From Acidimicrobiia bacterium (lineage in GTDB: Bacteria; Actinomycetota; Acidimicrobiia; Spongiisociales; ZC4RG35): a stretch of 64,000 nt of DNA. This document shows positions 58 through 31,450 of the stretch, piece after piece. The notes under the pieces were generated by a model, which searched no databases, was not told where the DNA came from, and saw only the letters and a program-made list of their open reading frames with translations. Both the position numbers and the translations under genes were made by a program. The DNA lies in NCBI GenBank assembly GCA_041748855.1, contig JBGTCK010000062.1, positions 7,672-71,671 on the forward strand, written 5' to 3'. How positions within the stretch are numbered: position 1 is the stretch's first letter; the number at the start of each line of letters is the position of its first letter.

Positions 58-1377
58 TCAGGTGCGGGATTCGAGGATCTTGACGAAAGAGCGGGTGTGG
101 AGTTCGTCGAGGGTGAGGCCGGTGCGCTCGGTCGCCTCGGCTTCGCTGATTGCCCCGCAATTGATGGCGCGGAGGAAGAAGTTCAACAGCCCCTGCCCGG
201 TTGCGGCGTCATCGAAAACCTCACCAACGAGGGTGGCCTTGGCTGCCGACTCGACGAAGCTCGACAGGCGTTCAGCGGCCTGGTCGAGACCTTCGAGAAA
301 GAAGGCGTAAACGGCGGCGTAGCGAGTGGGGAGCTGTGCGGGGTGGAGGTCCCATCCCTGGTAGTAGGCGTGGCTCAGCGAGTGCCGCACATGGTCGTAG
401 TGGAGCCGCATCGCACGGTGCACACTCTCCCGGTTCTCTGCATCCTGGTCGGAGCCAAGGTCGTCGCCGCGGTGAACCGGAACGGGCATCACGTTGGTGG
501 CGCCATCGGACAGCCAGACCCCGGACCCGGCAAGGCTCACCTGGAGAACGTGCCTGGCGAAGTCGCAGGCAGGGTGGGTCATTGTCTGGTGCGCCGCGGT
601 GATATTCATCGATGCGGTGTAGTCGTAGGTTCCGAAGTGAGCCCCCCGGATCCTCCCGTTGCCGGCCGCGACGAACTTTCGCAGTCCGCCGGTCCCGTCG
701 TGGTCGATGATCATCTGCGGGGTTTCCACCATCAGTTCCACGGGGATCGACGCGATACCCAGATTGTCCTCGAGTTCGGAGAGAGCTTCGTCGAGCACTG
801 CAACCTGGGCTTCATCCTGGATCTTGGGGAGGGTGATCACGAAGTCCTCCGGGAGGTTCCCGGAGTTCTCGACGAGGGTTGTCACGAATAGGTCGAGCGT
901 CCGCAGCGACCGTCGGTAGAGCTCGCCGGAGAGCGGCTTGATCCTGATGCCAAGGAAGGGCGGCAACGTCCCAGCCTCCATCCCGGCCGCGACCTGTTCC
1001 GCCGACGACGCGGCGTGCCCGTCCTCCTCTTGGTCGGCGCGGTTCCCGTAGCCATCTTCGAAATCCAGCCGGAAGTCCTCGATGGGCTCGCGCTCGAGCT
1101 TGTCCCGCACCAGCGAGTGGACCGGTCCGGCCAGGCTGCTGTCGATACCGAGCAGGTCGGAGAGATCGCTGCCACTGGGGACCCAGGTTTGGAAAGAATC
1201 GAGGGCTAGCTCTCCCAGTTTGCTCGCGGTGTCCGACCGGAAGAGGTGGGCTCCCCCATAGACGGTGTGAACCGGTTGCCGCTCGGGCCCATCGCCGGGG
1301 AAGTCCGATGCGAGGCGGGCATTGGTCGTGTCGAGGCGCTCAGCCCAGCGGGCAAGGGAGTCGTTGGATAGTCTCAT
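58..1377 (-). CDS. HpcH/HpaI aldolase / malate synthase-citrate lyase-like TIM-barrel enzyme (DUF6986-like)
   Basis: Motifs RQPVHTVYGGAHLF, DFRLDFEDGYG, HFGTYDY, QGWDLHPAQ. Real start taken as ATG 1377 (MRLSND); the ORF-track extension runs through intergenic DNA. Confidence 0.75.
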   Translation of the reverse strand: MRLSNDSLARWAERLDTTNARLASDFPGDGPERQPVHTVYGGAHLFRSDTASKLGELALDSFQTWVPSGSDLSDLLGIDSSLAGPVHSLVRDKLEREPIEDFRLDFEDGYGNRADQEEDGHAASSAEQVAAGMEAGTLPPFLGIRIKPLSGELYRRSLRTLDLFVTTLVENSGNLPEDFVITLPKIQDEAQVAVLDEALSELEDNLGIASIPVELMVETPQMIIDHDGTGGLRKFVAAGNGRIRGAHFGTYDYTASMNITAAHQTMTHPACDFARHVLQVSLAGSGVWLSDGATNVMPVPVHRGDDLGSDQDAENRESVHRAMRLHYDHVRHSLSHAYYQGWDLHPAQLPTRYAAVYAFFLEGLDQAAERLSSFVESAAKATLVGEVFDDAATGQGLLNFFLRAINCGAISEAEATERTGLTLDELHTRSFVKILESRT

Positions 1378-13285: not shown

Positions 13286-14484
13286 CTGGACCGAAGGCAG
13301 GCACGATCTGGGTTTGCCTTGGGTTGGCCCTTGCCGCCTGCACCACGTCTGATGGTGGAGGGCCGACCAGCGCTCCCATCGAGGAAGAAGAGTCACCGGG
13401 CCGGATAGTGGTGTTGGACACCGAGGGCGACGTCGTCACTATGGACCCGGACGGCTCCGACCGGATCTCGATCACCGACAACGGCGATTCGGCGACATAC
13501 TTCCAGCCGGTCTGGTCGCCCGACTCGCCCACTGTTGCGTGGAGCGTGTCTGATGAAACCGGCTTTGCGGTGATGACCGCAAGCGACGACGGTGCAGACC
13601 GGCGCCGGATCGATGTTTCGGGTTTTCCCTTCTATATCAATTGGTCCCCCGACGGCGAGCAGATCGGCATCCTCTACGCTGGGACCGGAGGCACATTCGA
13701 CCTCGGCCTGGTCAGTCCTGAAGCGGGCAGAACTAGCCAGCTCGACAGCGGATCGCCCTACTACTTTTCCTGGAGTCCCGACAGCGAAGCGGTTGTGGTG
13801 CACGTGGACGGTGACAGGCTGGAGATCTTCGATGAGTCCGCAACGCCGACCGATATCGGACCGACATCGCCCCGCTTTTTCGCTCCTCGTTGGGTTTCTT
13901 CCGGCATCTTCTATCTAGCCCCTGAAGGGGTGACCCTGCGCGCAAACGATGGAAGCACCATCGTGTTTGCCGCTCCGCCATCCGGCCAGGTCAGCATCAA
14001 TCCGAACGCGCAGGGCTCATTGGTGGCCGTCCACAGCCTGGGCGGCACAGGCGGAATGACCGTCGGACTTGGACCTACCGCCGTCGACGAGCCGCACACC
14101 GTTTCGATCATCGACACCGAGTCCGGGGCGTCCGAAGTCGTCTCTACCACCCTGTCGGTTGGATCTTTCTGGAGCCCAGACGGTGCACGCCTTCTCGTTC
14201 TCGAGGTCAACGCCGACGAGAGAGCCGTCGATGTCGTCGTATGGGAAGCCGGTGAAACCCGACTTCTCACCACGATTGAGATCCCCGGATCACTGATCAC
14301 CGAAGCCCTTGCCTTCTTCGACCAGTACGCTCAGTCGTGGCGGATGTGGAGCCCGGGGTCGGATTCGATAGTCCTTCCCGGAGTGATCGAGGAGGGCGAA
14401 GGGATCTGGGTGATCCCCGTCGATGGTGGCGATCCGATCAACATCTCGGATGGAGAATGGGCGGCCTGGTCCTACGGGACCTGA
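13282..14484 (+). CDS. Lipoprotein with TolB/PD40 beta-propeller repeats
   Basis: Lipobox LAAC; repeated WSPD motifs. Confidence 0.8.
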   Translation: MTGPKAGTIWVCLGLALAACTTSDGGGPTSAPIEEEESPGRIVVLDTEGDVVTMDPDGSDRISITDNGDSATYFQPVWSPDSPTVAWSVSDETGFAVMTASDDGADRRRIDVSGFPFYINWSPDGEQIGILYAGTGGTFDLGLVSPEAGRTSQLDSGSPYYFSWSPDSEAVVVHVDGDRLEIFDESATPTDIGPTSPRFFAPRWVSSGIFYLAPEGVTLRANDGSTIVFAAPPSGQVSINPNAQGSLVAVHSLGGTGGMTVGLGPTAVDEPHTVSIIDTESGASEVVSTTLSVGSFWSPDGARLLVLEVNADERAVDVVVWEAGETRLLTTIEIPGSLITEALAFFDQYAQSWRMWSPGSDSIVLPGVIEEGEGIWVIPVDGGDPINISDGEWAAWSYGT

Positions 14485-15770
14485 GACACCTCAGGGGACA
14501 TCGGGGCGATAGTCACCTCGGCGACCCTACGGCCCCTAGTGGTTCGCACTCTGACCCGCCACGATTCGGTCTCGACTGTGTCACCCCGCCGCGGTACCCG
14601 TCCGAGGCGGTCCATCAGGAATCCGCCGACAGTCCCGTACTCGCCTTCCGGTAGGGCAACACCCGCCTCGGCAAGGTCCTCGATCCGGAGCGTTCCGGAG
14701 ACTACCATGCTCCCATCGTCGTTGACCTGGATCGGAGACTCCTCCGGGTCATGCTCGTCGGTTATCTCGCCAACCAGCTCCTCGGCTATGTCCTCCATGG
14801 TGATTATCCCAGCGGTGCTGCCGTGTTCATCGACGACGATCCCGATGTGGTTGCGGGATCGACGCATCTCGGTGAGGACCGACTGGATCCGCGCTGTCTC
14901 GGGAACGGCCAGAGTGTCCCGCAGTGCGCCTTCGTCGAATGGCTGATCGAGTGCGTCGCCCTCGATCGCAATCAGGTCTTTGATGTGCACGAAACCCCGA
15001 ACATCGTCGAGGTCGCCGGTATGCATCGGAAGACGGGAATGACCGGTTGTCCGCATCAGGTCTAGGATCTCTGAGGCGGCGAGCGAGAGGTTGGCGGCGA
15101 CGACATCCGGTCGCGGGGTCATCGCAACCGAGACATCTCTCTCAGCGAAGTCGATTGCTCCCGTCAGCAGGTTGTGGGCGAAGTCGCCGATGACGCCTTC
15201 TTCCTGGCCGGCTCCGATGACCATCGCCAGGTCCTCGGCCGAGTGTCCGACATCGAGGGCGTCGGCAGGGCGGACTCCGAACAGGCGGAGAACGTTGTTG
15301 GCGATTCCATTGAGTAGCCAGATCAACGGCCTGAACACCAGCATGAACGCCCTGAAGGGAAACGCCATGAACATCGCCGATTTCTCGGGGCTCGAGATTG
15401 CGATGTTCTTCGGAGCCATCTCTCCGATGACCATGTGGAGAAATACGACGATCATCAACGCGAATACCAGGGAGATCCCGTGAATGACGTTCTCGGGCAA
15501 GGCGGTCAGGCCCAGACCTGCCTCGAAAAACCCGGCGATGGCGGGTTCGGCTACCGCCCCGAGCACGAGAGAGGCCATGGTGATTCCCAATTGTGCGCCG
15601 GCAAGGCTCAGGGAGAGGTCCCGGTTCAGCTTGACGGCGATCTGGGCGGAAGCGGACGCAGTCTGCTCCAGTACGTTGCGCCGTGCAGTTATATAGGCGA
15701 ACTCCGCGGCAACGAAGAAGCCGTTGGCGAGCAGGAGTAGGACCAGCCAGACGAGGGCGAGCCAGTTCAC
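14472..15770 (-). CDS. HlyC/CorC (CNNM, DUF21-CBS-CorC) transporter, copy 2
   Basis: NGFFVAAEF, AQLGIT, GEMAPK, MTPRPD, GHSRLP, VVDEHG. Confidence 0.92.
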   Translation of the reverse strand: MNWLALVWLVLLLLANGFFVAAEFAYITARRNVLEQTASASAQIAVKLNRDLSLSLAGAQLGITMASLVLGAVAEPAIAGFFEAGLGLTALPENVIHGISLVFALMIVVFLHMVIGEMAPKNIAISSPEKSAMFMAFPFRAFMLVFRPLIWLLNGIANNVLRLFGVRPADALDVGHSAEDLAMVIGAGQEEGVIGDFAHNLLTGAIDFAERDVSVAMTPRPDVVAANLSLAASEILDLMRTTGHSRLPMHTGDLDDVRGFVHIKDLIAIEGDALDQPFDEGALRDTLAVPETARIQSVLTEMRRSRNHIGIVVDEHGSTAGIITMEDIAEELVGEITDEHDPEESPIQVNDDGSMVVSGTLRIEDLAEAGVALPEGEYGTVGGFLMDRLGRVPRRGDTVETESWRVRVRTTRGRRVAEVTIAPMSPEVSQVP

Positions 15771-17077
15771 TGCTGCACCTCACGGCGGCCGGTCCTGGTT
15801 ACCTTGACCTGGTCGATGCGGAGGCCGTCCATCGTGAGCACTTCGAAGGCAAATTCGTCCAGCCTGACCACATCACCAGGGACCGGGAATCTCCCGCGGT
15901 GGGCGACGATCATTCCGCCCAGCGTCTCGTAGCGGCCCTCCGGCCATTCGAGACCGATGAGTTCCTCCACCTCGTGGCGGTGAAGCAGCCCGGAGAGGAT
16001 CTCCACCTTCTCAGGGTCGGCGACGACGCCGGAGTCGATGTCGTATTCATCCTCGATCTCACCGAAGATCTCCTCGAGCAGGTCCTCAATAGTCACGATT
16101 CCGGCGGTGCCGCCGTACTCATCGACAACCACGGCCATCCCTTTGCCGCTGGTACGCAGTTCATCGAGCACGTACTCGAGCGAGGACGTTTCGGGGACCT
16201 CGAGGGCAGGCAGGCTTATCGAGCCCACTTCGGTGATGGAGAGACGGGCCAGGGGAATCTCGATTGTGTCTTTGATATGAGCAATGCCGATCACTTCGTC
16301 GAGGTCTTCGTTGTAGATCGGGAACCGGGAATGACCTGTGCTGATCGATTCTCGGCGAAGGTCGGCGATCGAGTCGTGTTTGTTCAAGCCGACGATGTTG
16401 ACCCGGGGGATCATTGCATCACTGGCTATCTTCTCGGTGAAGGAGAGGGCCCTGGTGAGCAGCTTGAGCTCGCTGTCATCGAGCCATCCAGCTTCCCCTG
16501 AGGACCTGATCATCAATTCCAGTTCCTCCACAGAACGGACGCCGGCCAGTTCCTCCCGAGGTTCGATTCCCAGCCGTCTTACCGTCCAGTTGGCCGAACT
16601 GTTGAGGAAGAGGATCAGTGGTCGGAGTAGAGCATTGACGATTTGCATCGGGATCCCGAACCACACCGCCGAGGCATACGGCTTGGAGATAGCGAGGTTC
16701 TTCGGCACGAGTTCACCGAAAACCATCTGCGTTGCGGTGGCGAGGACAAAGGCCACTACAAGGGAAACGGCCAAACTGGTCTCGGCAGTGAACCACTGTA
16801 GGTCCGCCACCAGCGGATCGATCAGCCGGGCGAGAGTGGGTTCAGCGATGAATCCCAGGACCAGGGAGGTCACCGTGATGCCGAGTTGGGCCCCCGATAG
16901 TTCGAATGAGAGATTGCGGAGCGAGCGGAGGATCCGGGACGCGGACTTGTTGCCCTCGCGTGCCCTGCGCTCGATGAGACTCCGATCGACACTGACGATG
17001 GCGAATTCGCCGGCCACGAAGAAGGCGTTGAGCAGGATGAGGACCAGGACTGCGAGCAGCCCGACGAGGTTGCTTAT
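15767..17077 (-). CDS. HlyC/CorC (CNNM) transporter, copy 1, apparent non-canonical ATA start
   Basis: The frame continues upstream of the ORF-track GTG (17017) as ISNLVGLLAVLVLILLNAFFVAGEF. In-frame TGA at 17087-17089 with no ATG/GTG/TTG in between; GAGGTG lies 5 nt upstream of ATA 17077. Confidence 0.85.
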   Translation of the reverse strand: MSNLVGLLAVLVLILLNAFFVAGEFAIVSVDRSLIERRAREGNKSASRILRSLRNLSFELSGAQLGITVTSLVLGFIAEPTLARLIDPLVADLQWFTAETSLAVSLVVAFVLATATQMVFGELVPKNLAISKPYASAVWFGIPMQIVNALLRPLILFLNSSANWTVRRLGIEPREELAGVRSVEELELMIRSSGEAGWLDDSELKLLTRALSFTEKIASDAMIPRVNIVGLNKHDSIADLRRESISTGHSRFPIYNEDLDEVIGIAHIKDTIEIPLARLSITEVGSISLPALEVPETSSLEYVLDELRTSGKGMAVVVDEYGGTAGIVTIEDLLEEIFGEIEDEYDIDSGVVADPEKVEILSGLLHRHEVEELIGLEWPEGRYETLGGMIVAHRGRFPVPGDVVRLDEFAFEVLTMDGLRIDQVKVTRTGRREVQQ

Positions 17078-17208
17078 GGGGCCACCTCACGGCCGACGAC
17101 AGACGTGGAATCGGTACCCGAAGATCTAAGGCTCTGCGGACTCGAACCGCACAACCAGAGGCGGCTAACAGGTTGAGGAGGCTCGTCGCTCGATTTGTCG
17201 GGTTCCAC
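17074..17208 (-). CDS. Putative leader peptide (44 aa, MEPDKSSDEPPQP...REVAP) coupled to the CorC/HlyC operon
   Basis: Hand-translated. GTG lies 8 nt after TATACT (17217-17222); the TAA stop overlaps the downstream ATA (ATAA). Confidence 0.65.
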   Translation of the reverse strand: MEPDKSSDEPPQPVSRLWLCGSSPQSLRSSGTDSTSVVGREVAP

Positions 17209-17299
17209 TCAGCAAAAGTATAAGCGCCGCCGGATATTCGACGAACGGGCGCAGTATCGATGAGGAAGCCGGGGTTAGGAGTTCTTGGTCATCCCTGGA

Positions 17300-17731
17300 T
17301 CAGACCCATTCGGATGTCATTTTCGGGATCACCGTCACGGGAACCGGGCTATGCCTGACCACCCGTTCGGCGATACTGCCCAGCTTCCATCTCTCGAACC
17401 CGGACCGACCGTGCGTGGCCATCACCACCATCCTGATTCCATCGCCGTCGGCGTAGTCGATGAGGGCTTCGGAGGCGTCGTCACCGCTAATGAGCGAGTA
17501 GTCGGCCGGGATCCCGTCCACGGCCGAGGCGACACTGCGGAGGTAGGACTCGATCAATTCGGGCACTTCGATCTGTTCGGAACTCGCCTGTGCTATCAGG
17601 TCGGCGCGAAGGCGCAATCCCGAAACGGTGACGAGCACCAGCTCGTCGCCGAGGGCTTTGGCGAGGACTGTCGCCGGGCCGATTGCCCGGGCGGCGACGT
17701 CTGAGAGGTCCAGAGGAACCACAATCTTCAT
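17300..17731 (-). CDS. Universal stress protein
   Basis: IVVPLDLS, MATHGRSG, GSIAERVVRHSPVPV. Confidence 0.9.
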   Translation of the reverse strand: MKIVVPLDLSDVAARAIGPATVLAKALGDELVLVTVSGLRLRADLIAQASSEQIEVPELIESYLRSVASAVDGIPADYSLISGDDASEALIDYADGDGIRMVVMATHGRSGFERWKLGSIAERVVRHSPVPVTVIPKMTSEWV

Positions 17732-28939: not shown

Positions 28940-31450
28940 TTACCGACCGCCCCCTGAACCCGGGCCCTGTTCATCGAACTCCCTCTCGGGCCTGACCATT
29001 GGTTGCATCTCGGTGGTTGTTGGAAACGAGCGGTGCCAGCCCGAGCCCTCCACCACCTTCGTAGTGAGTCTGCGCCAGTCGTAGGGTTCGTTGGCCGGGA
29101 GCTCGCGGAGGATATCTGGAACCACTTTGGCCCAGCCGACTGCTCTCAGGGCAAAAATCATGACGGTCCCGGTCAGGGCGACGACGCCGACTGCGGCAAG
29201 AAGCACCACGGTTCTGGGCAACTCGAGGGCGAAGAAGTCGCGAAGGGCCGGATTCGTCATCGTCACCAGTAGCAGTCCGGCCATGGTCGCGATCAGACCC
29301 TTCTTCCATGGCACCAGCGGACGGGCGACGATGCCCAGTACAAACAAGCCGATGGCGGCAAGGACGAGAGTTGCGGTCGTACGCGCTTGTTCGATGGACG
29401 AGCCTTCGAGATCGGCGAGCCAGTAGGCAGCGAACGTGGCGAGGGTCGCCGTCAGACCCGTTGGTAGAGCGAACTTCAGAACTCTGGACACGAAACCGGC
29501 ACGACTACGGCGCTTGGAAGGAGCGAGGGCGAGGAAGAAGGCGGGGATGCCAATGGTCAGGCTTCCGACCAGAGTCAGGTGGCGGGCAAGGAAGGGGAAG
29601 GGCAGCGTCGAGAGGACGATCGCCAACGACAGCCCAACCGCATAGACGGTGCTGGTGATGAAGAGGTTGGCAACGCGTTCGATGTTGGAGGTGACCCGTC
29701 GCCCTTCAGCCACAATTCCGGGGAGGCTGGAAAATCGCCCGTCGATGAGCACAAGCTGGGCAACCGATCGGGAGGCCGGGGCCCCGCTCCCGATTGCGAT
29801 GCCGATGTCGGAGTCCTTTAGCGCGAGCACGTCGTTGACGCCGTCGCCGGTCATGGCCACGACGTGGCCACGCGATTGCATGGCGCGGACCATGGCCCGC
29901 TTCTGGTTGGGTGACACCCGTCCGAAGACGTTTGCGGTTTCCATGAGTGAGGCAAGTTCATTGGGGTCTTCGGGGAGGTGGCGGGCATCAACGACACGGT
30001 CGGCCCCATCGAGGCCGACCTTGCGGGCAATGGCCGCCACGGTTTCCGGATGGTCGCCTGAGATGACCTTGATCTTCACCCCCTGCTCGGCGAAGTAGCG
30101 CAGGGTCTCGGCTGCGTCGGGCCGGACCTGATCAGAGAGAACGAGGATCGCGACCGGGGTCACGTCGGGCGGCAGGAGGCTCCCCGACAGCGGCCTTCGG
30201 CTGCTTCCGACCAACAAGATCCGATTTCCCCCGGCCGACAGTTTGGAGACCAGCTCCATCGCACGGGTGTCGTTCGGTGCCACGACATCGGGAGCTCCGA
30301 TGACCCATGTCCCATCGCCGAAGAAGGTGATGCCACTCCACTTTCGGGCAGAGGAGAATGGGACCGAGACCTGAACGCCCCATCCGGGATCGTCAGGGAA
30401 CGCTGCGGCGATCGCCGCAAGAGTTGCGTTGGGGTGGGTCTCCGAGGCGGCGATGGCCGCCAACGCCGGCCCGGGGTCTTCGCTGGTGAGGAGCACCAGC
30501 TCCTCGACGGTGAGCGTGCCCTGAGTCAGAGTCCCCGTCTTGTCGAAACAGACCGTGTCGACGCGGGCCAGGCCTTCGATGGCGGGCAGCTCCTGTACGA
30601 GCACGTTTCGTTGTCCCAGCCTGATCACACCTACAGCGAACGCGATCGATGCCAATAACACGAGGCCCTGAGGGATCATGGCCACGCCGGCCGCTACCGC
30701 GCCGCCGAGACCCTCCTTCCAGGTTCCCCCACCTCGGGTCGCACTCCATACCAGGAGCACTCCCATGGGGACCACGACCCAGCTAACCACTCCGAGAATC
30801 CAGTTGATCCCATCTCGCAGTTCGGAGCGGACCAGCGTGAATCGTTTTGCTGCGTGGGCTAGACGTGCCGCGTAGGAGTCGTCGCCTACCCGCGTCGCTC
30901 GGTACCGGCCCGACCCGGCGGCGACAAAGCTTCCCGAAAGGCACTCATCGTCGGGCTGTTTGAACACAGGGTCGGACTCTCCGGTGAGCAGTGATTCGTC
31001 GATTTCCAGACCGTTTGATGTGGTGACTAGCCCGTCGACAGCCAACTGATCGCCGGGCTGAAGCTCGATCAGGTCGTCGAGGACGATCCTCTCGACGCCA
31101 ACCTCTCTCACCTCCCCGGCCCTCACCGCCCGGACTTTGGGAGCTGCTACCAGCTCTAACCGATCGAGTGTGTGTTTCGCCCGCAACTCCTGGACGATCC
31201 CGATCGCCGAGTTGACGACGAGGACGATTCCGAACAAGGCGTCCCTTGGCTCGCGGAGGACCACGAGGACAACGATGAGCAGGGCCCCGAGGAGGATATT
31301 GAAACGGGTGACGACGTTGGCGCGAACGATCTCACCGGTGGTGCGCGTCGGTTTTTCGGAGAGCCGGTTGACCAAACCGGCTTCCATCCGCTGGCGTACC
31401 TCGCCTGGGGTAAGCCCCTGTTCTGGTGAGGCTGTTTCGAGGGTCGTCAT
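28940..31450 (-). CDS. Cation-transporting P-type ATPase (CtpE-like)
   Basis: TGES, DKTGTLT, SGD, GDGVND; the M4 motif reads PQGL. Confidence 0.92.
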   Translation of the reverse strand: MTTLETASPEQGLTPGEVRQRMEAGLVNRLSEKPTRTTGEIVRANVVTRFNILLGALLIVVLVVLREPRDALFGIVLVVNSAIGIVQELRAKHTLDRLELVAAPKVRAVRAGEVREVGVERIVLDDLIELQPGDQLAVDGLVTTSNGLEIDESLLTGESDPVFKQPDDECLSGSFVAAGSGRYRATRVGDDSYAARLAHAAKRFTLVRSELRDGINWILGVVSWVVVPMGVLLVWSATRGGGTWKEGLGGAVAAGVAMIPQGLVLLASIAFAVGVIRLGQRNVLVQELPAIEGLARVDTVCFDKTGTLTQGTLTVEELVLLTSEDPGPALAAIAASETHPNATLAAIAAAFPDDPGWGVQVSVPFSSARKWSGITFFGDGTWVIGAPDVVAPNDTRAMELVSKLSAGGNRILLVGSSRRPLSGSLLPPDVTPVAILVLSDQVRPDAAETLRYFAEQGVKIKVISGDHPETVAAIARKVGLDGADRVVDARHLPEDPNELASLMETANVFGRVSPNQKRAMVRAMQSRGHVVAMTGDGVNDVLALKDSDIGIAIGSGAPASRSVAQLVLIDGRFSSLPGIVAEGRRVTSNIERVANLFITSTVYAVGLSLAIVLSTLPFPFLARHLTLVGSLTIGIPAFFLALAPSKRRSRAGFVSRVLKFALPTGLTATLATFAAYWLADLEGSSIEQARTTATLVLAAIGLFVLGIVARPLVPWKKGLIATMAGLLLVTMTNPALRDFFALELPRTVVLLAAVGVVALTGTVMIFALRAVGWAKVVPDILRELPANEPYDWRRLTTKVVEGSGWHRSFPTTTEMQPMVRPEREFDEQGPGSGGGR

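Follow-up and report, generated by a model that had tools for sequence, protein, structure and literature searches.

The window analysed here, a 64,000-nucleotide (nt) stretch of the genome of an Acidimicrobiia bacterium (assembly GCA_041748855.1, contig JBGTCK010000062.1), carries on its minus strand two adjacent genes for transporters of the CNNM/CorB type. The first of these, gene 1, has no canonical start codon ahead of its conserved N-terminal motif, and is preceded by a short upstream open reading frame (uORF) whose stop codon overlaps an ATA triplet. Comparison with orthologues shows that gene 1 starts at this triplet (AUA in the transcript), and we propose that most ribosomes arrive at the AUA directly from translation of the uORF. 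The features of the locus are the following, with positions counted from the first letter of the window.

15767..17077, minus strand: CNNM/CorB-type transporter gene 1, 436 codons plus TGA, with Pfam (CNNM, CBS, CorC_HlyC) and PDB matches
14472..15770, minus strand: CNNM/CorB-type transporter gene 2, whose GTG start overlaps the gene 1 stop (GTGA)
17074..17208, minus strand: uORF for the leader peptide, GTG start, 44 codons, TAA stop; homologous uORFs in 14 distinct leaders
17217..17222, minus strand: -10-like hexamer TATACT, 8 nt upstream of the uORF GTG (17208-17206)
17170..17205, minus strand: acidic/proline module, leader codons 2-13 (E-P-D-K-S-S-D-E-P-P-Q-P), conserved
17082..17088, minus strand: Shine-Dalgarno sequence (SD) GAGGTGG, within the 3' end of the uORF; GAGGT invariant in the 14 leaders
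17087..17089, minus strand: in-frame TGA closing the transporter frame four codons upstream of the ATA; kept in 13 of the 14 leaders
17074..17077, minus strand: ATAA, in which the transporter ATA (17077-17075) is overlapped by the uORF TAA (17076-17074)
17300..17731, minus strand: universal-stress-protein gene, upstream, context only

The uORF is translated in silico as MEPDKSSDEPPQPVSRLW...REVAP (complete frame, MEPDKSSDEPPQPVSRLWLCGSSPQSLRSSGTDSTSVVGREVAP). The transporter frame reads TGA GGT GGC CCC ATA AGC AAC, giving GGP-ISNLVGLLAVLVLILLNAFFVAGEF after the stop, and its first ATG, GTG or TTG downstream of the TGA is a GTG at 17017, inside FFVAGEF. The intergenic region between the universal-stress-protein gene and gene 1 extends from 17299 to 17078. 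An initial annotation had noted the absence of ATG, GTG and TTG between the TGA and the NAFFVAGEF motif, had chosen the ATA (17077) as start because it lies 5 nt behind GAGGTG, and had described the 44-codon frame (17208-17074), 8 nt after TATACT, with its TAA overlapping the ATA as ATAA. Every factual statement that it made about the sequence is correct: re-reading gave the same result, all coordinates were verified, the spacing of GAGGTG(G), which ends 5 nt before the ATA, and the AUH codon (AUA, AUU or AUC) conserved in orthologues agree with the chosen start, and the overlap has been kept through independent insertions and deletions.

Gene 1 is, by its domain content, a predicted member of the CNNM/CorB/CorC exporter family (DUF21-CBS-CorC_HlyC). 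The CNNM domain (PF01595, E 1.9e-39) covers residues 9-203 of the ATA-started protein and positions 2-181 of the 181 in the profile, and Pfam also detects the CBS pair (PF00571) and the C-terminal CorC_HlyC domain (PF03471). Structures matched in the PDB are those of CorC (4hg0, E 4e-35) and CorB (7m1t, E 2e-29; also 7m1u), and the archaeal CorB structure 7m1t aligns from residue 7 of the query. Since the two matches begin at residues 9 and 7, a start at the GTG at 17017 would delete the first membrane helix. The two-gene CNNM arrangement is kept in relatives. No terminator-like site was found by a generic terminator scan of the locus, and an Rfam scan of 16800-17500 returned only two chance-level matches to small nucleolar RNAs (E above 3), with no riboswitch or M-box.

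The AUH start codon in orthologues

A search of 41 related genomes with the transporter protein gave 24 orthologues of 51-100% identity. ATA, ATT or ATC occupied the aligned codon in 22 of them, and in 18 an in-frame stop lay upstream with no canonical start between. The search was extended to 201 genomes of the family, of which 129 held an orthologue at E <= 1e-100, and 98 further N-terminal regions were retrieved; 11 matches (five from unpublished genomes, six partial or cut by contig ends) were excluded and one sequence (L125) that did not match the anchoring motif was dropped. The final set comprised 121 sequences, 118 from the family and three from two other families of the same order. 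Two of them (L012 and L015) come from unpublished genomes (G027 and G038); their removal leaves 119 sequences and changes no conclusion, and the counts for the reduced set are given in brackets below.

The aligned codon was ATT in 76 orthologues, ATA in 30 and ATC in 13, that is, AUH in 119 of 121 (117/119). The two exceptions, L018 and L020 (2/121; 2/119), have another codon at this position and a canonical start just upstream. The upstream frame was closed by a stop without an intervening ATG, GTG or TTG in 114 of 121 (113/119). A GGAG or GAGG whose last base stands 3-14 nt ahead of the start was present in 89 of 121 (87/119), with a modal spacing of 7 nt (67 cases), as compared with 30 of 121 for a control coding window inside the gene. 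In the other orders of the class, 301 genomes were searched and 39 N-termini retrieved; here the aligned codon was ATC in 18, ATA in three, GTG in nine, ATG in four, TTG in one and something else in four. The same codon is thus a canonical start in some lineages (14/39) and AUH in others, which identifies it as the initiation codon. We conclude from this alignment that the predicted start of the transporter is AUA, at a conserved AUH codon.

Six more genomes of the genus carry the ATA, the TGA and the leader, as do seven further distinct metagenome or genome contigs. The initial annotation had named an ATG in the reads at 17075-17077 as one finding that would overturn it. A contig from an independent run (X2) that spans 16900-17340 differs from the window at 33 positions, none of them at 17074-17090, and has no insertion or deletion inside 17078-17208; together with AUH in 119 of 121 orthologues, this speaks against a hidden ATG. 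A Leu codon at +6 (CTG/TTG) was considered as an alternative start and rejected: it is CTC in L006 and in leaders of the L170/L174 type, and it has no SD.

In three sequences from other orders (L139, L152 and L153) and in the database protein P0065, a GTG or other canonical start stands directly before the conserved Ile, so that the protein begins M-I-(G/P/S)-T. Possibly this is the ancestral state, from which the AUH forms arose by loss of the first codon. The infC gene of the same genome (G000, contig C66, about 820-850, minus strand; L183), which encodes initiation factor 3 (IF3), also has an apparent ATT start, 8 nt behind AGGAGG and with no canonical start nearby; the ATT is followed by AG (ATTAG), as in transporter loci.

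Gene callers place the start of these genes at the next downstream ATG, GTG or TTG (P0001-P0120), with products of 384-434 residues. Among the best 120 database homologues, the NAFFVA-type motif, expected at about residue 16 from an AUH start, was found at residues 2-13 in 107 and at residue 17 in one, and was absent from the first 80 residues in 12. In 119 of the 120, therefore, the N-terminus is shortened or the motif missing, so that the first membrane helix is incomplete or absent (for example P0001, MAGEF..., and P0005, which starts at MRNLSFEL). Alignments and models of this transporter family in Acidimicrobiia consequently begin from wrong sequences.

Conservation of the leader peptide and of the stop-start overlap

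The leader block was sought in public collections. The scan found nine loci in metagenome contigs and six in genome contigs, five of the latter duplicating known leaders; two metagenome matches (L171 and L175) proved to be an unrelated long reading frame without a -10 box and were removed. In total there are 14 distinct leaders, with uORFs of 21 to 44 codons, all of which end at the transporter start region. The leaders of the genus (L001-L006) share a block from TATACT through GTGGAACC...CCTCCTCAAC. The hexamer is TATACT in 13 of the 14 and TATAAT in L007, and its spacing to the GTG is always 8 nt.

Within the 13 leaders that hold the full block, E2, P3, D4, E9, P10, P11 and Q12 are invariant, and D8 and P13 are kept in 12. 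Variation is only synonymous at P3, E9, P11 and P13; K5 (AAA/AAG) and S6/P6 also vary synonymously within residue types, and amino-acid changes are limited to codons 5-7, with the exception of one sequence. The resulting consensus is M-E-P-D-x-x-x-D-E-P-P-Q-P (MEPDxxxDEPPQP). L007, the most distant leader, whose transporter is 73% identical, has a different uORF of 21 codons (MDAAPSPDEPPQPWSSPEVSA) in which DEPPQP again occupies codons 8-13, and which again ends in ATAA. The pattern of substitution indicates that selection acts on the peptide and not on a DNA site, and the uORF is inferred to be translated. Asp, Glu and Pro make up five of the six residues 8-13 (DEPPQP) and eight of the 12 residues 2-13, or nine of 12 in the MEPDQPNDEPPQP variants; the leader thus has at least four D/E/P in a six-residue window near the N-terminus, which is the published threshold for a sequence rich in acidic residues and proline (DE/P). 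The MEPD leader occurs once in the genome, the 44-residue peptide has no Pfam family, and the stretch that separates the module from the SD shows little other conservation. E2, P10 and Q12 are encoded throughout by GAA, CCT and CAA, respectively; at the 62% G+C of this genome, these may count among the rarer synonymous codons.

Downstream of codon 13 the leaders differ in length, and their contact with the transporter start is nevertheless kept in all 14, by three routes. Nine leaders end in ATAA, with 44, 44, 44, 44, 44, 42, 42, 36 and 21 codons. Four (L006, L168, L174 and L181) have, about 125 nt upstream of the ATA, a 27-codon MEPD uORF whose TGA overlaps an ATG (ATGA), and this ATG opens a second uORF of 15 codons, MS(K/R)V..EVGA, which ends in ATAA, so that the two frames form a two-step relay. 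L172, which has 1 nt less than the related L170, stops with a TAA at +5..+7 (-8 spacing). The in-frame TGA is replaced in a single leader, L176, which has CGA at its position. At least five length changes are required, three in frame and two out of frame yet compensated. By a rough estimate that takes base composition only into account, an unconstrained lineage would keep the geometry about 0.14 of the time.

Most of the family lacks the MEPD leader and has a shorter frame in its place. An out-of-frame uORF with a canonical start, and a stop beginning between -3 and +8 of the AUH codon, was found in 106 of the 121 orthologues (105/119); 103 of these 106 start within 60 nt, as compared with 50.5 expected from shuffled sequences, and 73 are mini-ORFs of seven or eight codons that contain the SD. 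The position of the mini-ORF GTG follows the frame of the stop, -19/-22 with ATTAG and -20 with ATAA or ATAG, and where the transporter start is ATC, ATG-started mini-ORFs end in TGATC or TAATC. In 68 of 90 cases the mini-ORF start is preceded at 8-12 nt by a TANNNT hexamer, and TGACAG-like bases often stand about 17 nt upstream of that; the mini-ORF would then lie right at the predicted 5' end of the transcript or only a few bases from it. An out-of-frame stop overlaps all 106 ATA/ATT starts, an overlap for which the conserved second codon (AGY, GGC, GAY or AAY) is partly responsible and which is for that reason weak evidence when taken alone. The initial annotation had proposed to look in other loci for a conserved uORF with an (D/E)PP or EPD motif, a stop/start overlap and non-AUG starts. 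The first of these is borne out at the peptide level in the 14 distinct leaders; in the wider set of orthologues AUH starts and short overlapping uORFs do extend over the family, while most sequences lack the MEPD leader, which among the 121 was not found outside the clade.

Two further arrangements were observed. In one genus of the family (L080, L082, L083, L085 and L086) the seven- or eight-codon mini-ORF is missing and a uORF of 20-34 codons ending ...GSAAEVEIRRELIN stops on ATTAG; here the upstream frame has been elaborated in a second way, unrelated to the first. The other CNNM pair of the same genome (contig C64, about 30590-30630, outside the window) starts at ATG and is preceded by a -10-like TAATCT, 6 nt, and a three-codon GTG mini-ORF without an obvious SD, whose TAA overlaps the ATG (TAATG). 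Tiny 5'-proximal frames that end on start codons may be a general habit of the organism.

Proposed coupled re-initiation, its rivals and known systems

We give a probability of about 0.55 to the reading in which the AUA-started operon is translated mainly by ribosomes that finish the 44-codon uORF, with their passage gated by the acidic/proline module. Because its GTG lies 8 nt after the -10 box, the uORF is probably leaderless or nearly so, and ribosomes would start it at this 5'-proximal codon. The module MEPDxxxDEPPQP would then set the fraction of ribosomes that complete the uORF. Those that do would terminate on AUAA and re-initiate at the AUA, open local structure, or both, the SD holding them in place; those that abort or stall within the module would deliver no translation of the transporter. 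Transporter output would then follow how well ribosomes pass the module. The conserved geometry suggests that coupling is probably the main route to the AUA. We are more tentative about the signal, and regard as doubtful, by analogy with the EPDP of MgtL, that the gate reads ribosome stability as set by free Mg2+; higher Mg2+ would in that case permit more complete translation of the uORF and yield more exporter. Such a direction of control, more exporter with more Mg2+, would be physiologically sensible for a CNNM/CorB protein.

Several observations weigh against this reading. The SD is strong and well placed, so the AUA could be used directly without the uORF. In the other orders the overlapping uORF is absent from 15 of the 21 AUH-start orthologues and in 11 of these 21 an in-frame stop shuts off the frame, which indicates that AUC is used directly there without coupling; overlapping upstream frames also occur in 10 of the 14 canonical-start orthologues of these orders. 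Orthologues are kin, and their counts overstate the number of independent events. A two-hexamer generic promoter scan found no site at the uORF promoter region, and a search of sequencing runs listed no RNA run that contains the locus. The identity with MgtL amounts to four residues, E. coli is the only species in which peptides of this kind are known to destabilize ribosomes, and the substrates of the CNNM/CorC family are diverse, with the polyamine exporter PaeA among its members according to PMC12421838.

Modelling of RNA structure adds little to the argument. The pairing of the Pro-Pro codons (CCTCCTCA, 17181-17174) with the SD, put forward by the initial annotation, has a predicted probability of 0.75 in L169, 0.30 in L170 and at most 0.17 in the other 12 leaders, and the helix that it drew between the leader 5' end and TCGGG (17121-17117)..TTCCAC (17110-17105) appears in the minimum-energy fold of one leader of 14 (L003). 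Minimum-energy folds of the 14 leaders differ among themselves, and RNAalifold on -50..+12 of the same sequences gave only a 3-pair stem with no covariation, a further point against the favoured reading. The SD is predicted to be mostly paired in all 14 (unpaired probability 0.0-0.4), with a partner that varies. A hairpin between the SD GAGGU and ACCUC in transporter codons 3-4 was discarded as evidence; it can form in 93% of cells, and its 5' side never varies, so that it proves nothing. An unmasking step at the SD is plausible as a model, yet unsupported. Analysis of the locus for coupling of the leader to alternative stem-loops or to transcription termination gave a negative result.

The uORF might instead be a constitutive booster, a natural bicistronic design in which a weak and possibly structured start gives low steady output and the peptide senses nothing. 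We hold this to be unlikely. In its favour, most members of the family have only the SD-holding mini-ORF of seven or eight codons and no DE/P module, the spacings of -4, -1 and -8 are common in coupling (PMC12548453), a synthetic short upstream frame with an internal ribosome-binding site raises translation (PMC13255528), and the unpaired probability of the SD does not exceed 0.40 in any leader. What it leaves without account is the conservation, under synonymous change, of nine of the first 13 leader residues, and the fact that DEPPQP holds its codon number in the otherwise different leader of L007. In another reading, the module would be a proline-proline stalling or arrest peptide that reports the activity of elongation factor P (EF-P), proline or polyamines, the paused ribosome controlling access to the SD and AUA. 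The invariant E-P-P-Q-P, with P10 always CCT, would agree with this, as would the requirement of proline-rich stretches, which stall ribosomes, for EF-P (PMC11162784) and the presence of PaeA among the relatives (PMC12421838). In most leaders, however, 90-100 nt separate the candidate stall site from the SD downstream, a distance too great for direct exposure of the SD, and pairing of the PP codons with the SD is predicted in only two of the 14; we consider a stalling switch improbable.

Direct use of the AUA by an SD-bound 30S subunit, for low expression or for control by IF3 as in infC, with the uORF acting as an SD-masking competitor or encoding an independent small protein, appears slightly more improbable still. 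It draws on the AUC-start orthologues without uORFs in other orders, on the apparent ATT start of infC in the same genome, 8 nt behind AGGAGG, and on the discrimination of IF3 against non-canonical starts (PMC9723500). Neither a mere competitor nor a free-standing small protein would need a stop-on-start geometry, and this geometry has survived five or more changes in length, of which two were out of frame and were compensated. There is next to no chance that the missing start reflects faulty assembly, a pseudogene or programmed frameshifting that would join uORF and transporter in one product. A CCCC run does stand just before the ATA, and the source is a draft metagenome-assembled genome of 86 contigs; the same ATA and TGA, however, are found in other distinct leaders and in the independent contig, and the codon is AUH in 119 of 121 orthologues. 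A frameshift fusion was rejected, as it would need a +1 shift in loci of the ATT type and a -1 shift in those of the ATA type, and it would leave the Ile codon and the SD spacing with no reason for conservation.

The gated re-initiation that we favour could be part of a more ambitious arrangement, which we consider unlikely: a Mg2+ homeostat that needs neither a protein nor a riboswitch and consists of three ribosome-stability checkpoints in series. These would be initiation by 70S ribosomes on the leaderless uORF, passage of the N-terminal acidic/proline module, with ribosomes falling apart at low free Mg2+, and re-initiation at AUA, a codon that free 30S subunits with IF3 would largely reject. 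All three steps would be favoured by high Mg2+, so that exporter synthesis would rise steeply only at excess Mg2+. The mini-uORF and AUH start found throughout the family would represent the ancestral form of such a device, and the acidic N-terminus of E. coli corC a convergent solution. A search of PMC5499595 for effects of Mg2+ on initiation at AUU or AUA turned up none.

The components of the proposal, leader peptides, translational coupling, MgtL-type sensing and AUU starts, are known; their combination, its conservation over a family and the inverted output are new. A literature search turned up neither an AUH-started CNNM gene nor a leader peptide coupled to such a gene, an absence that is not proof. 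The locus provides a natural case in which an entire bacterial family retains a non-AUG start linked to an overlapping upstream frame, and it makes testable whether terminating ribosomes re-initiate where free subunits cannot start.

Among known systems, AUU autoregulation of infC shares a conserved AUH start behind a good SD, and the infC of this genome looks alike; the transporter locus differs in having an overlapping uORF. We know of no link between CNNM transporters and IF3. The leaderless short frames of mycobacteria likewise are actinobacterial short ORFs at or next to a predicted 5' end, before an operon (PMC4633059, bioRxiv 10.1101/834739). They are amino-acid-responsive attenuators, unlike the present uORF, and the available text of these reports mentions no AUH-start gene downstream of them. 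The uORF of the M. tuberculosis M-box (PMC12810186) is unrelated to this locus. Translational coupling and bicistronic designs have the stop/start overlap, the SD inside the upstream frame and the spacings of -4, -1 and -8 in common with the loci described here. Unlike in those systems, the downstream start is AUA, AUU or AUC rather than NTG, and the upstream frame is tiny and at the 5' end rather than a gene; the AUUAG (-5) spacing of the family loci cannot be formed by NTG starts.

The closest parallels concern Mg2+ and ribosome stability. In E. coli, DE/P sequences after the initiator Met are reported to destabilize the translating ribosome (Chadani et al., bioRxiv 10.1101/2021.02.02.429294). 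According to the same report, translation of MgtL aborts within MEPDPT, abortion is enhanced by low Mg2+ and by loss of bL31, and the effect is strongest at the N-terminus and wanes once the nascent chain nears about 30 residues. It also proposes, for the N-terminus of E. coli ybeX/corC, that high Mg2+ raises synthesis of the exporter. The inversion of mgtL logic claimed by the initial annotation is therefore not wholly new, having been proposed for corC/ybeX, while the leader does fit the published description of DE/P sequences. The protein family and the logic, in which more Mg2+ stabilizes the ribosome and gives more exporter, are shared with this proposal of intrinsic ribosome destabilization (IRD); in E. 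coli, however, the acidic stretch is inside CorC itself, whereas here it lies in a separate frame coupled through AUAA. In an orthologue from another family of the same order (L135), 23 codons upstream of the aligned start, the protein is extended in frame at its N-terminus, and the extension begins MPPPDERHRSPLP (MPPPDE); this acidic/proline stretch, fused to the transporter, recalls E. coli corC.

MgtL, which precedes enterobacterial mgtA, is likewise a short, D/E/P-rich leader frame that starts with MEPD and stands before a gene for Mg2+ transport, and the motif described here falls in residues 1-13, the region for which the strongest effect has been published. Only the four residues MEPD are shared with enterobacterial mgtL, and phyla, target gene and output mechanism differ. 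MgtL controls an importer, mgtA being switched on by way of transcription attenuation when leader translation aborts at low Mg2+; at the present locus the target belongs to an exporter-type family, the frames are joined by a stop/start overlap with a non-AUG start, and completed translation would turn the gene on. If this is true, the idea of the ribosome as a Mg2+ sensor would gain an exporter operon in a distant phylum, with an output opposite to that of MgtL.

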